The position numbers and the translations under genes were made by a program. Under the pieces are notes generated by a model. That model ran no database searches. It worked only from the letters and a program-made list of their open reading frames with translations, and was not told where the DNA came from. This document shows positions 9,537-41,556 of a DNA stretch of 64,000 nt, piece by piece. The DNA is taken from assembly GCA_001662655.1 (NCBI GenBank), contig KV460237.1, one strand, 5' to 3'. Source of the stretch: Pseudogymnoascus verrucosus (Eukaryota). Each line of letters starts with the position of its first letter. The first letter of the stretch is position 1.

Positions 9537-9635
9537 ATCGTGGTGCCAGAGTGGTTAATGGGTATGACTCGAATGCTTTATTGCGATAGATATCATATGG
9601 CTTCGGCCGCGTAGGTTCAAATCCTGCCCACGATG
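9537..9635 (+). tRNA. tRNA-Ser(CGA) with short intron
   Basis: Acceptor stem ATCGTGG/CCACGAT, D loop AGTGGTTAA, anticodon stem TATGA/TCATA around CT-CGA-A plus intron, long variable arm, GGTTCAAATCC T loop, downstream T tract. Confidence 0.93.
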
Positions 9636-35608: not shown

Positions 35609-35670
35609 ACATACGATCATGGACTTAAGAGAATTGTGCATCCCGTCTGCTCTGCCGTATACAAGCTTAA
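35609..35670 (+). rRNA. 5S rRNA, 5' half (nt 1-62), interrupted
   Basis: ACATACGATCAT...GAGAATTGTGCATCCCGTCTGCTCTGCCGTATACAAGCTTAA matches the ascomycete 5S 5' portion, then similarity stops. Confidence 0.88.
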
Positions 35671-35755
35671 AATTCATGGCTTAATACTCTCTAAATTGTG
35701 CTAATAGGCATGGCGTGGAACCTAAGCTCCTTGCCGCCTTAAGGGCTTCCTATAT

Positions 35756-36975
35756 TTATGTTGCAGAAACAGCAAATTGCTCCCACAACGCCGCTCCGGT
35801 TGCGGTAACACCTCCAATAGTGGCCTCAATAGTACCAACCCAACGAACATATATCCCGATATTAATCTGCGTCGACGTCTGAGTCAAGACAGCATCCAGG
35901 TGACTCCCATCATTAAGAGTCATATTGAGAGTCAACGCCTTGGGGACAGTAGTGAAGATGGTTGGAGGATATGGGGTGTCGATAGGTCGGATCTTAACAC
36001 CGGTTGTGCAGGTAGACGCGACGACTTGGCCATCCTTCAGAGCATAACCACCGACCTTGTTGGCTCCTGATGGGTCGATCATGTCGAAGAAAACGAGGTC
36101 GTAACCACCAACGCTCGCGTGGCCCCAGTACCAACTCTTCAGAGCTGAGATGAAGGGGACGTCTCCCCAGTTCTAAGATATTGTTAGTATCGCATCGCAA
36201 TAAAGTATCAAGACCACCGAAGACCGCCTACCTTGTCATGATATCCATGTCCCGTAAACTTCAGGGGCTTGCCAAGGACCTTAACATCCACCACTGCATC
36301 AGCACCTGGCATAACATTAACCCAGCCGATATTGGGCAGTGACTGTTCATCCTGGCCAGGTCCAAGAGGGCCACAGTTATAATGTCCCGGACCACGCTGA
36401 AAGGGTCAAATGTTAGCTGGAAATAGACCTGAATCTAAAACATGGGGAGCGCATACCGATTTCAGGGTGAAGGTGCCAGTGAGGCCAATAAGTGGGTTGT
36501 TCAGGTTCACAACGTAGGAGCTGAGATCGGGAGCTCCTTTAAAGCTGATGCCGCTTCCTTTCCAGTCTCCCGACGCTCCATCGCCATTCGTAGTGGTAGT
36601 AACCGACACTGCTGGCACGGGGAAGACCGCAGGAGGCGTTCCGTCCGCAAAGGTTGCAAATACCCAGACGTTCAAGGGATCGACGGTGCTGAAGAAGTCG
36701 AAGCTGAACCCAATGGCAGATGAGGTAAAGAAGATGACCGTGAAAGCCTGAGTTCCATCACTAGAGACGGCGTCAAAGTACCACCAATCGAACGTCGTCG
36801 CGTTGAGTGGAAAGATCCTTGGGCCATCTGCCTGGCTTGGGCAAGATGTGAATTGAACTTGGCTGGGCCCTGCATAGGGAATGGGAGAAAAGGTGTTTGT
36901 GTCCGGGAAGCACTGGGACAGGGCAGCTGGAACCAGCGCGAGCAAGGACGCGAGGGTGAAGAAAATATTCTTCAT
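35756..36975 (-). CDS. Secreted lipocalin-like protein of the Diels-Alderase (Fsa2/CghA) / CrtC-like hydratase superfamily; exons 36457-36975, 36232-36396, 35756-36172
   Basis: Signal peptide MKNIFFTLASLLALVPAALS; FDWWYFDAVS, GHYNCGP, GWVNVMP, GYHDKNWG, SWYWGHA, YVRWVG, GAALWEQF. Confidence 0.8.
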
Positions 36976-37099
36976 GTTGGGATTTGATAATCGCGCGGTG
37001 CAATTCAACTGGGAGGCAAAAGAGCAAGCCAATGTCCCTGAAAACACCCAGGAAAGCTTAATATTTAAGACTTTTCCAAGGTGATACAATGGATGCTTT

Positions 37100-37440
37100 A
37101 TATCTCTCCATCCCAGCCCCGCATATGTGGGTTCATAACTCCACGCGATACCCCGCGGTTCGGAGAGAGCTGCCGTCATGCAATGTCAGAACTCTCCTAC
37201 TCGAATAGTTAGTTTCGACAGCAAAAAGAGGGGAAAAAGCTGTCTTGACCATTTACACGCTGCTATACTGATATCTCTCCATCCCAGCCCCGCAGAACTG
37301 GGTTCAGAACACCACGCGATACCCCGCGGTTCGGAGAGATATGCCGTCATGCAATGTCAGACCTTCCCTACTCGAATAGCTAATTTCGGCCAAAAGCGGG
37401 GGAAAGCTGTTTAGACCATTTACACACCTGCTATGTTGAT
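37100..37440. repeat. Direct tandem duplication of a ~171-bp promoter segment
   Basis: Units start ATATCTCTCCATCCCAGCCCCGCA at 37100 and 37271 and align over their whole length. Confidence 0.92.
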
Positions 37441-38274
37441 TCAAATAACTCAGCTGTGCCTTCGTCTCCATGTTTAAATGGTGATACGCGGCATGTTGAG
37501 TCAGGAACCGCGACCTCAGTTTTTCCAGAATAGGTATAGTCCGCGAAACAACGGCACAAACCTTGGTCGAACTCGAATATGTAAGGTAAATCCCCACAGG
37601 GATCGGGGTAGGTAGACAAGCCTCTTCCCACTTTTCTTGGTAAAGTTTATTTCCTGTATGGTGACCCTGGCTGAGGTTCAGATGAGAACATGGCCGATGA
37701 AACTGTCCAAGGACTCCGCAATTTAGAGTCAGCACGTCAGTACCTTAATACCGGCGCTAGTAATGGACAGTTCTAGTGCGCTCCGTGCACTATAGAGGCC
37801 ATGCTATCTATCCTCTTCACTATTATCAAGTAGGAATGTCTCAAGTTGTGTCGGGATAATGCCACGAGATGACGACTTGTTGTGGCACGTTTTTGGACCT
37901 GGTGTGTTGTCATATTCCTATATGGTTGGTACCAATCCTATTTAATGCGGTACATACAGGCAAACTGATTATTCTCCTCGTGTATTCTATCAGCTCCTGC
38001 GAGGAATAAATTACCCCTTCCCTAAATCGGTTAACTAGGCTACGAATTACAATGCCGAGGATGCTAAGTTACTATGGCGAGGGTATAAGGGGACTGAATG
38101 ATAAGTTGATGATAGGGATTGGCACAGGGTTAATGCATGTAAAAGCTGGCATCATAAGAATATTCGACGATCTGTATGCGCCTTTGGCGCTAGTACAGGA
38201 GTAGCTACATGGGTATTACGCATGACCATGAGTGGCTCGAACGACATCAAGGTGAGATATAGGCAAGTGTAGTA

Positions 38275-38620
38275 CCTGCTCTGCTTCGATGTCCTTCCGG
38301 ATCCAGAGCATGCTCCGGAAAGCCCACCTCTCCCAACGCTGGTCCGTCGGCATCATTTTGGTCCAATTTGGGTGTCCTGTAGGGACTGTGATCACTGCGT
38401 TGTCGGTCGTCCACGCATATGGTCCCGATATTGCTAGCACTCCAAAGTCTTTCAGTTGTGGATCGCTCATTAAGCTGTGTTGTACCATCCGCTGCTTTCG
38501 GACATTCAGTTGAAGGACCTGGAGTGTTCTATTCATGATGGGTAGGATAAAGCACTCGGCAGTTCCTACTAAACGATTCATGTGGTCCTCCGCATGGAAC
38601 GCACCTCGGTATCACCGCTT
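38275..38620 (-). mobile_element. Tad-like LINE fragment spanning the ORF1/ORF2 junction
   Basis: ORF1 end PRCVPCGGPHESFSRNCRVLYPTHHE* overlaps the ORF2 ATG; endonuclease start LQVLQLNVRKQ...RSMLWIRKD. Confidence 0.85.
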
Positions 38621-38865
38621 GACTGTTACTAGTCCGCATGTTTGCCTGGATATATTTTCTAGCCTAAATACAAACTTACCCTTGCTTCAGCCCCAAGATA
38701 TAGATAGCTATATAAGACCATCCCACTTGATGTTTTCAAGGACATAGAGAGGGTGTATATACATAGCTCTAGAGCTCAGTAAGTAGCAAGTAATGGTATA
38801 AACTAATACATTCAGAATTTAAAGGGTTTAATAGTGGTATGCCTAACTATACGGAAACTCCGCTA

Positions 38866-40133
38866 CTAAGAGCGTCTAGTCTGTAATCTATGCATATAAG
38901 CATTGTCTTCATCTTGAAAACCTGAAAAGTCTGTTATTAAGTCGTAGACGTTTTCACGTCTCTCCCAGAGCTTCCTCTCAAAATCCTCGACTTCTTCTAA
39001 TGTCATGTAGTCTTCCTGCAACGTCGTGCCGACTACTCCATGAAACTCCTTATCACTTTCTTCGCACATTTCCGGCCACTCGTGCATAACTGGGAAGTCA
39101 GCTTTGTATACCGCACTCATGCTACCACTGGCCCACTCCTGGCAATGAAAGCGCTGTCGAATTCGTCGCTCGATATAGAATGGCTGAGGCGGGCTCTCTT
39201 CAAAAAAGTGAGTATCTGGTCTTGCATAGCGTGGATGCAACTTTGGAAGGTTAAACGTTATATCCATGTGAGGCGTGGTTTGCTCTTCAGAGCAAGCCTG
39301 CATGCGTGCAATCAGGGCAGCGATGATCTGACGCAGGGCTACGCGTTCGTTGACGAATGACCATGAAGGTCTGTCGTCGTGGTCTAACCATATGTGAAGG
39401 CTGCGTAGTTGCGGCAACTGGCAGGTAGCCTGCCAGAGACGGGCCCACGCAGAAGCGCATTTGTTTAATTCGACGCTCGTGTCATGATTTGTTACCAAAA
39501 CTAAGTTTTCATCTTCCTGTAGTGCTTCATAGAAGGCTAGCGGAAGTCGTAGGGCGATGTTCAGCTTATGAATAGCAGGACGTGTGTGATCCCAGAAGTT
39601 CCAGGGGCGGTTTAGGTCACTACTCGGCTCAAAAGGCGTTTGTAGCAAGACGTCCAGGGTATCTAGATCTGTGATGTTTATCGCTGTACCCTCCGAAACA
39701 AAGTCACAGACATCGAGAAACCTATAAGTTAGAAGTGACACTTAGCGAAGAGCGATCTTAAGGAATAGATAAAGGAATTTGTTTACATTTTCTTACATAC
39801 AAAGAGAAGGTTGCCTATGTTATTGCGGCTATGCTCGTGCAAGTTCTCTGCGTAGGCAGCCTCCTTACATTCCCAATGTGCCCCCCACGAGGATCGCAGA
39901 CGGCGGGCCCACGTAGTATCTGGCGATCCTTCGGCCGTAGGCTTACGCTCGCGGCCGTCGTGGCGGTCATCCCCTAGGCTGGGCTGAAGGCATACTGACA
40001 GTTGAAGTCTGCCCTGCGACAAAAATGCGTGAGTCTGGCCATGAATGATACGAGCATATATTGCTCGGCGAATCTCGACGAGCATAGAGAGCAGTTTGCT
40101 CTCATGCTGCGAGTGCACATGTACGTCGTTCAT
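38866..40133 (-). CDS. Hypothetical protein with F-box-like N-terminal motif, two exons
   Basis: QHESKLLSMLVEIRRAIY...LLFVCKKM joined by a GT-AG intron (~39724-39786) to a ~290-aa ORF with LPQLRSLHIWLD. Confidence 0.7.
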
Positions 40134-40529
40134 GTTTCTTTAATCGGTAAGTAGATGATATTTTGACTAGGATAGTTCGATTTGTTTTTAAGGTGAATGC
40201 TATATCACAAATTAGTGGCAGTTAACCAGACTTTACAACGTAGACGTAGTTGCGGGATCCTCGGCAAAACAATTATCTAGGAAGTTGTTCTAGTTTGCAG
40301 GGAACCTAGTATTGGCCTGAGTTATTATTGGAAATACGAGGCAGTGCAATAGAGCAATCTCACAACTGCACGACTACTGCCATATTGAATTTCACTATCG
40401 CATTATTAATAACAGTATTCCTATTCGTTTAGACATTATAGTTTTGAACGACATTAATAGAGGCAAGTTGCAATGAAATATACGTTTCTCATGAGTGGCC
40501 ATGATGTGTAATATCTGCGAAACTTCAGT

Positions 40530-41125
40530 CCACTCCAAGCCCTCTAACTTATACTTCTATATGCTATTTATTATAAGTAGTACCTTATGTCCTTATAAGA
40601 GTAAGCTAATCTTTAGGAGTAAGGGCTTTCTATATAAGGATATAGAGTACTATATTATAAGAAGTAGTATATAGAAGTATAAGTTAGATAGGAGTTAGTA
40701 TAATTCTATAGGTCTACTACAAAGGATATAAAAAAGATAAAGAAGAAATAGGAACCTATTATAGTAGCTCCCCCTTAGTATCTGAAATAGGTCTAACTCT
40801 ACTAGGTTATATATTATAAAACTATACTACTCTACTTCTATAGTATATAACTCTATAACAGCTCTAAGTCCTAATCCTATAAGTACCCCCTAGGGGAGGC
40901 ATCCTTATATTCTATCCTATTATAGTAGATATTAAAAAAAAAACACAAAGTTGTAGACAGAGGACCTTAAAATATAAAGGTAGGAGACTGGCCCTTTATA
41001 CCATTTCCCTAGCTTAGCTATACTCAGCTTCCTTACCTATCTAGCTTACCCTACTTACCTTGCTCACCTTACTTACCCTACTCACCTTACTCACTATGCT
41101 TACCTACTTACCTAGCTCACCTACG
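40530..41125. repeat. AT-rich, TpA-saturated RIP relic ending in CTTAC/CTCAC tandem repeats
   Basis: Very high TA content with CA/TG/CG depletion; original element not identifiable. Confidence 0.75.
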
Positions 41126-41287
41126 TGCATCTAATGTTGCGTTACAACGCGTTGTTAAAAATGGACCTACTTTTGGATAGTTGAGGTAGTTAAAGTGGTC
41201 GCCATCTCGAAATAAGGGTAAGGGCGGCGAGGCTTACCTGCTAGCCCAGATGGCACCGATTTAAGTAATATCTAGGTGTTTGCCCAA

Positions 41288-41344
41288 GATCAGTAGATTA
41301 GTAGTTACGTGGGTGACCACTAGCGAATACCCACTGTTGTATGT
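41288..41344 (+). rRNA. 5S rRNA, 3' half (nt 63-119), interrupted
   Basis: GATCAGTAGATTAGTAGTTACGTGGGTGACCACTAGCGAATACCCACTGTTGTATGT; its 3' end pairs with ACATACGA of the 5' half; T tract downstream. Confidence 0.9.
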
Positions 41345-41556
41345 TATATGTTATATGTTGTATGTTTTTTATTATTTTGCCATTTTATACGTTGAATTTT
41401 GGCCCCTGAAGTTGAAGTGGTTTGCAGGGAGTGGGGGACGACCCTGTAAAAATATTGTTGTGGCCTTGCAGCCTCATCCCACCTCAGTGTGAACCGCGAA
41501 CCGCGCCGCGGACCCAAAAAGTTCAAGCTCAACCCCAAAGCCATGGGCCAGTGCCA

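Follow-up and report, generated by a model that had tools for sequence, protein, structure and literature searches.

What do the two ends of an element that has split a 5S rRNA gene reveal about how such elements move? The question is raised by a 64,000-nt stretch of contig KV460237.1 of Pseudogymnoascus verrucosus (assembly GCA_001662655.1; 30.2 Mb in 151 contigs searched), hereafter the window, in which a 5S gene is interrupted by an insert with a short motif some tens of bases inside each end. The original prediction for this DNA had described the motifs as symmetric subterminal inverted repeats, binding sites for a recombinase or accessory protein, and perhaps the cis signal for mobilization in trans. 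We find that the insert belongs to a family of elements in 5S genes; the family, its boundaries, its inverted repeat, the fixed spacing within that repeat, its linkage to captain recombinase genes and its decay are established here. The insert itself is probably a captain-less relic, damaged by repeat-induced point mutation (RIP), of an Enterprise-family Starship that lies at 5S nt 57-61 with its captain antisense to the 5S gene. The two motifs are quite likely the innermost block, here called box C, of a ~65-bp imperfect and asymmetric terminal inverted repeat (TIR) within attachment sites. The cognate enzyme is the Starship captain tyrosine recombinase, and box C is a reasonable candidate for a site bound by a recombinase or accessory protein.

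The split of the 5S gene is real. Its 5' part (nt 1-61) occupies 35609..35669 on the plus strand, with 8/61 differences from the commonest intact 5S gene of the genome, and its 3' part (nt 57-120) occupies 41282..41345 on the same strand, with 8/64 differences from the intact copy. Both halves were recovered by BLAST using an intact copy, and an Rfam scan gave no match to either half. The genome holds at least 43 intact 5S matches among 47 scored, and these paralogs supply the pre-insertion sequence. The insert is 5,622 bp long with a 5-nt core at either end, GCTTA at 35665..35669 and GCCCA at 41282..41286, both on the plus strand. Direct repeats (DRs) that match the target are a feature of Starships. 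In the family, this repeat is GCTTG (5S nt 57-61) at either junction, with 40 of 47 left ends carrying it; the window copy holds degenerate forms of it. In the window copy and in all four metagenome heads described below (L159-L162), of which L159 shares the head type of the window copy, the final two or three bases of the right core differ from those of GCTTG, and the first two bases are constant. This deviation reflects either host 5S variants or an overlap sequence carried by the element.

The two motif strings are present exactly as predicted, at 35723-35741 and 41219-41236. Their positions are not symmetric, with 53 nt from the left core to the left motif and 45 nt from the right motif to the right core, so that the offsets from the outer base of the 5-nt core are 58 and 50, respectively. 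For the window element alone, the likeness between the ends is within chance: of 2000 shuffles, 12-44% reached the local score of 11, the share varying with how much sequence was compared (p 0.12-0.44), and a repeat search of the window did not report the motif pair among its repeats.

The likeness becomes clear at the level of the family. We found at least 43 left and at least 32 right junctions in this genome, all at 5S nt 57-61; the counts are lower bounds because at most 40 candidates were scored in each genome search, and one left-junction row (on contig C69, a 72% match without an element end) was left out before counting, reducing 44 to 43. The left core motif is present in 37/43 left ends, at offset 63 in 25 of them and within offsets 61-64 in 30, and the right motif is present in 28/32 right ends, at offset 50 in 24. 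When the left consensus was aligned in inverted orientation with each of two right consensus types, the scores were 20 and 22, compared with shuffle means of 7.8 and 7.4, and none of 5000 shuffles reached them. Averaged over all left-right pairs, the score was 13.3 for inverted, 7.4 for direct and 7.7 for shuffled comparisons. The consensus arms align over ~60-65 nt, beginning 4-10 nt inside the core, and thus form a TIR, an optional feature of Starships, where the original prediction had seen none at the extreme ends. Its expectation that the motifs would be conserved in position and sequence at homologous ends is borne out in this genome, and for the right end also at 4/4 related captain loci in metagenomes.

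The inverted likeness resolves into three blocks: A (of the GATTAATACT or GATAATAGT types), B (GTGCCA) and C, the motif originally noted. In the window, the arm at the tail, or 3' end, of the element lies at 35670..35745 on the plus strand (profile match E 5.5e-24), with box A at 35678-35688, the B region at 35698-35713 and box C, which is the left motif, at 35723-35745, where the family homology ends. The arm at the head, or 5' captain end, was delimited by family end alignments at 41220..41281 on the minus strand, with box C (the right motif) at 41220-41238, B at 41250-41257 and A at 41264-41273. A further conserved block of the head, D (41128..41152, minus strand), lies just outside the 9-mer array described below and is present in both head types and in L159-L162. 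Among the 28 of 36 right ends with canonical spacing, GGTGCCAT, CTAG and GGTGAGC are held at 0.96-0.97 majority, compared with 0.55-0.68 for adjacent columns, and among the 30 of 47 left ends with canonical spacing, CCCTTGCCGCCT has a mean majority of 0.95 and the preceding TGAGC one of 0.69. A genome-wide pattern for right boxes B and C gave 35 matches, and its reversed control gave none.

Such islands argue against reading the inverted likeness as a neutral remnant of an ancient terminal repeat that survives only through kinship and occasional conversion. All copies do share an ancestry, the ends look mosaic, and three heads carry a tail-type inner part, which would reflect exchange between arms. 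However, the island and neighbour majorities given above hold across the two head types, whose captains are only ~65% alike in DNA, and two further metagenome head types retain the same islands. We therefore regard a neutral leftover as very improbable.

The pentamer TGAGC occurs in 23/36 right ends and TAAGC in 2/36; left ends vary at this pentamer, with 12 TGAGC and 2 TAAGC among the 35 rows kept. A palindromic core site of the form TAAG..CTTA was considered and rejected, since its letters are mostly RIP-type G>A changes. Between the window head and the like-typed head of L159, 45 of 57 differences are C>T or G>A.

Box A resembles the arm of the 5S gene that lies 3' of the core (nt 62-86). 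The resemblance gives p 0.004 and rank 2 among 64 5S 25-mers for right ends, and p 0.012 and rank 17 of 64 for left ends; no resemblance to the 5' arm of the 5S gene was seen. Co-variation of the left and right box A types within an element was also considered and rejected as not significant, although the same types are found at both ends family-wide. Since pairing ends by element gives no closer match than pairing them at random, the family elements appear to be mosaics.

Farther inside the ends lie arrays of a 9-mer, GGGTGAGCA when read inward, which the original prediction did not mention. They are found inside both ends, in 27/47 left ends (mostly from offset 90) and in 19/36 right ends (offsets 156-224). 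A triple-9-mer pattern matched 56 times in the genome and its control not at all, and 29 of 30 of its places adjoin an element end. The window copy retains the right array, RIP-mutated, at 41031..41122 on the minus strand, and lacks the left one, family homology being cut off at 35745. These arrays would be better candidates for arm sites than box C. In 14/47 left ends, a further conserved block of the TTTTCGTGTCA type follows the array at offsets 100-165. Three right ends (C2:379302, C25:11482 and C6:534762, given as contig and position) have an inner part of the left-end type, in which box C is followed directly by the 9-mer array, and they represent either a third end type or a crossover between arms.

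The right end is the Starship head, since captain relics start just inside right ends and read inward. Such relics, with matches to DUF3435, were found on C27, C25 and C52, with stops in every matched segment, and five further right ends keep N-terminal stubs of a captain. In the window copy, a captain is not the first gene reading inward; only an 11-nt relic of its start remains, at 40910..40920 on the minus strand, comprising a mutated start codon (40920-40918) and 8 further bases and aligning with the captain relic start on C27 and the captain start in L159. The relic start codon lies 366 nt inside the right end. Because nothing else of the captain remains, the insert is a Starship derivative rather than a full Starship. 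A TATA-like box, putatively that of the captain promoter, lies at 40992..41000 on the minus strand, and its TATAAA is invariant in 11/11 aligned heads. No unbroken captain of the clade of the window element was found in this assembly. A metagenome search returned 10 captain loci, of which five are close relatives and four of these have DNA before the captain start. In all four (L159-L162), the 3' part of 5S is present, along with the array, the TATA box and boxes B and C spaced as in this genome. Five distant captain-like metagenome loci (24-27%) and one fragment showed neither 5S sequence nor end boxes. The captains of L159 and L161 are apparently unbroken, as judged solely by where tblastn stops fall.

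Comparison with published elements draws on passages and tables of PMC11162782, PMC10104507, PMC8092012, PMC9156397, PMC12506042, PMC13562431, 10.64898/2026.09.21.753150 and 10.1101/2024.06.28.601215. The nearest named captain homologs are from Pseudogymnoascus. Of six named homologs sought in Table S4 of PMC11162782, four are listed in family 6 (Enterprise), one is unassigned and one is absent; two further named homologs are likewise absent. A 5S rDNA target is typical of family 6, and the family described here occupies one at every junction counted. Thus, the captain would fall in the Enterprise family, an indirect assignment made through homologs rather than a tree. Its last exon encodes a Cys/His region, which is also present in 30 distant homologs among 160 proteins compared, and nine Cys/His positions are invariant in an alignment of 20 sequences. 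This exon gave no Pfam match and no significant match in structure searches. Taken together, these features hint that the captain may end in C2H2-like fingers.

These parts suggest how the ends might work. The captain tyrosine recombinase would exchange strands across the short GCTTG core, and in a circle that core would join head to tail. Box A, the outermost block, resembles the 5S arm 3' of the core and would act as a core-type half-site, with boxes B and C and the inverted arrays of 9-mers as additional protein sites that unite both ends. The captain's own predicted C-terminal zinc fingers are plausible readers of boxes B and C and of the arrays. Bacterial tyrosine integrases such as lambda Int and those of Tn916 and integrative and conjugative elements use arm-type sites that are read by an N-terminal arm-binding domain, and tRNA-targeting bacterial elements restore their target on insertion. 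The likeness to those systems extends to a short junction core, an arm that mimics the target, repeated inner sites and tandem accretion at a conserved RNA gene. They differ in that the bacterial arm sites are bound by an N-terminal domain, whereas the candidate reader here would be the C-terminal C2H2-like region of the captain.

Six junctions in this genome run from head through a single core to tail without intervening 5S sequence (C2:296640, C3:131612, C33:136520, C39:230499, C64:2823 and C71:1827). They have the sequence expected of a circle junction, and tandem insertion would leave the same. In addition, at C63:161903-161833, C57:47039-47160, C3:577198-577119 and C15:256929-256812, the 3' part of one 5S gene is followed after 70-120 nt by the 5' part of another split gene; these are adjacent 5S genes hit in series. 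At four other places (C6:549847, C22:445211, C17:224821 and C6:534665; loci L079, L138, L178 and L197), a 5S 3' part and a T-run stand directly before a left end that lacks its outer dozen bases. These four share one junction type, and the 5S gene is intact at three unlinked loci with differing upstream flanks. A right end with a 5S 3' part follows 5.1 kb on at the C17 locus and ~15 kb on at the C6 locus, where the fourth copy comes next. The intact 5S genes at these junctions point either to a target-restoring sub-lineage or to gene conversion between junctions.

A wider proposal, which we put forward tentatively and consider less probable than not, is that clade-2 Starships have lambda-like, two-tier attachment sites, composed of a half-site that mimics 5S and of GGTGAGC-type boxes and 9-mer arrays read by captain fingers. 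The GGTGAGC motif would be shared from a Leotiomycete to Aspergillus and Fusarium, and one sub-lineage would have a tail arm made of the 3' part of 5S with its terminator, rebuilding the 5S gene on insertion. The reading of this sub-lineage as 5S-restoring rests on the four copies of one junction type. If the two-tier proposal is true, the complete cis signal would amount to ~350 nt of head plus ~150 nt of tail.

The position of the head array allows another reading, in which a transcription factor, of the host or of the element, binds box C and the 9-mer arrays and serves the captain promoter rather than recombination; in a circle, the tail array would then lie upstream and boost the captain. 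The array ends ~30 nt before the TATA box in aligned heads, and the head box C contains the array core GGTGAGC. The Starship Hephaestus excises without a scar in a captain-dependent manner and forms a circular intermediate whose junction raises captain expression, tail DNA being responsible for the increase. On the other hand, the boost in Hephaestus required at least 699 bp of tail DNA, far more than the 150-nt conserved tail here, and the spacing from core to boxes B and C is held nearly to the base, a better fit to a recombination complex than to an enhancer. A purely transcriptional role is thus rather unlikely.

Several points count against taking the blocks as recombination sites. The right array may be a promoter element, given its place immediately before the captain TATA box, and the assignments of boxes and arrays as sites, like their role in excision, are putative readings of sequence. 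The likeness of left ends to the 5S arm is weak, at rank 17 of 64. Within an element, the box A types of left and right end agree no better than in pairs drawn at random (13 pairs, p 0.18; 0.09 when 4 junctions are added), and in the window copy the two are of different types. The left ends examined are those of this genome and not of captain-bearing elements of other genomes. Copies within one genome share descent, and the counts overstate independent conservation. Finally, the model of the captain last exon (pLDDT 86) matches C2H2 arrays only weakly at best (Foldseek E 0.047; best Z 3.1).

Known Starships share much of this anatomy. TIRs were reported in 18/20 high-confidence A. fumigatus elements and commonly lie some tens of bases in from the DR. 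That Enterprise-family elements target 5S is known (PMC11162782), and family-6 members such as Osiris of Aspergillus fumigatus and the elements with DR aagccaca or ggctt in Table S7 of PMC11162782 target mid-5S at an apparently homologous position, as judged by comparing one listed 20-nt DR with the 5S of this genome. Like the family described here, family-6 elements have a short DR and imperfect TIRs 30-50 nt inside it, and the annotated TIR of aspacu4_s00331 contains GGGTGAGC ~50 nt inside its captain end. In rows of Table S7, a TIR with GGTGAGC occurs in two elements, one of family 6 and one of family 7, at 45-50 nt inside the captain end, compared with 43 nt here; with two among hundreds of TIR rows (number uncounted), this sharing is suggestive only. 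The table rows searched contain no DR of gcttg or caagc. Antisense orientation in 5S was considered as a novelty and rejected, since elements listed with DR ggctt or tgtggctt.., in family 6 and elsewhere, are compatible with this orientation too. There are also differences from family 6: the published TIRs consulted are single 10-30-nt strings from automated annotation, whereas the arm here is a multi-box one of 65 bp, and family-6 elements have a captain, unlike the window copy. The family-6 passages and tables consulted show nothing like the multi-box arm, the inverted 9-mer arrays, the head-to-tail junctions or the dozens of relic ends in one genome that are seen here.

The Enterprise, or Spok block, of Podospora (PMC8092012) is likewise comparable, in that its head (463 bp) and tail (231 bp) persist as the dispersed repeats bufo and schoutedenella after internal deletion, and a zinc-finger domain has already been reported for its captain Kirc, comparable to the putative finger region of the captain here. 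Its target is RGGTAG and its authors found no TIRs, in contrast to the 5S target and clear head-tail inverted repeats of the present family. The derelict Starships of Macrophomina, and Voyager (PMC9156397), resemble the window copy as captain-less remnants with lasting cargo, Voyager being located in 5S with TIRs. However, Voyager belongs to family 10 and lies 20 bp from the 5S start, whereas the insertions here are at nt 57-61. A literature search, which left most subscription papers outside it, found no study that maps where captains bind, and no report of multi-box arms, 9-mer arrays or a 5S-restoring Starship.

According to PMC11162782, DRs and TIRs presumably act in excision and integration, the demonstration still being pending. 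The working mini-elements and starmids retain 1.9 kb of tail and 3.8 kb of head. The window element itself is an ordinary dead relic of a kind already known; it is the end anatomy that is new. Among the ~75 relic ends of one 5S-targeting family, nature has already made a set of deletions and substitutions that brings out three boxes, fixed spacings and inverted arrays of 9-mers; the conserved sequences are probably needed for movement of these elements. The relic ends point to a compact, 5S-specific integration system, and the two metagenome loci provide apparently unbroken captains with matching heads, so that the cis requirement is directly testable. The value of the family-wide footprint lies in turning an open mechanistic question into a few candidate boxes.

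Is the window copy itself still mobile? We compared it with relatives represented by four sequencing runs of 14 listed; two of them, X2 and X5, carry the same differences and are possibly not independent. The insertion is present at the left junction in 4/4, with a contig that runs from the left flank into the cargo, and the relatives differ by internal deletions at 37099 and 38273. Position 38273 is a breakpoint in all four, and one relative has ~3.7 kb extra there. A contig of run X8 passes from 38273 to 41241 through 1,126 letters of other sequence, and the right box C may be lost or diverged in that relative. No empty allele was seen in the four runs. Two short joints linking 5S halves in X5 were considered as an empty allele and rejected; they were taken as other 5S copies because they lack flanking sequence and the long contig of X5 holds the insertion.

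These data bear on an idea in line with the mobilization in trans of the original prediction, namely that the insert moved at its present 5.6 kb, without a captain of its own, as a genuine non-autonomous mini-Starship served by a captain in trans. Captain action in trans has been demonstrated for Hephaestus, many units in this genome are just 3-15 kb long with both ends kept, and at two tandem junctions a captain-less unit of 3.7-3.8 kb lies between another head and a 5S 3' part. Against this, the locus is occupied in all four relatives with differing internal deletions, the captain stub and RIP damage indicate decay, the tail array has been deleted, and the assembly yielded no unbroken captain of this clade. 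The window insert is the single full match in the genome, and no near-identical captain-less small element was found at two loci among 26 element stretches, which do not cover all elements in full. Mobilization in trans is thus unsupported for this copy, and a mini-Starship seems distinctly unlikely. Read most simply, the insertion is old, its captain was lost and it shrank in place, one cargo gene being kept; the window copy is probably fixed and immobile.

As in other Starships, the insert contains cargo genes. One (35756..36978, minus strand) is spliced and encodes a predicted secreted, Diels-Alderase-like protein with DA_N and AsqO_C domains (PF24137, E 1.4e-16; PF25581, E 1e-25); its product gave no sequence match in the PDB. 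In the last exon, 9 of the 10 listed differences in relatives are at third codon positions, and the gene looks retained by selection. A 171-bp tandem duplication at 37100-37388, upstream of this gene, is absent in runs X2 and X5. A 65% paralog lies at C34:81967-83096, ~9.7 kb inside another left end, and no right end was found within ~21 kb downstream of it. The second cargo gene (38866..40133, minus strand) is probably spliced and DUF7730-like (PF24864, E 1.6e-4, below the curated cut-off). It has a 74% paralog on contig C10, with no element end within 10 kb on either side.

At the former place of the captain gene, 40633..40909 is a RIP-mutated repeat of ~280 bp with ~30 matches in the genome; it is probably a solo long terminal repeat (LTR), a label drawn from its ends only. 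A partial inverted copy lies at 40543-40597. The same repeat occurs at the captain start in L143 (C8:403500 region), apparently as an independent insertion because the two positions are ~11 nt apart. At 38216-38581 on the minus strand is a 121-aa frame with no Pfam match, which we take to resemble a piece of a non-LTR retrotransposon endonuclease. Elsewhere in the window, Rfam identifies an intron-type tRNA gene at 9537-9635 that ARAGORN missed under its bacterial setting.

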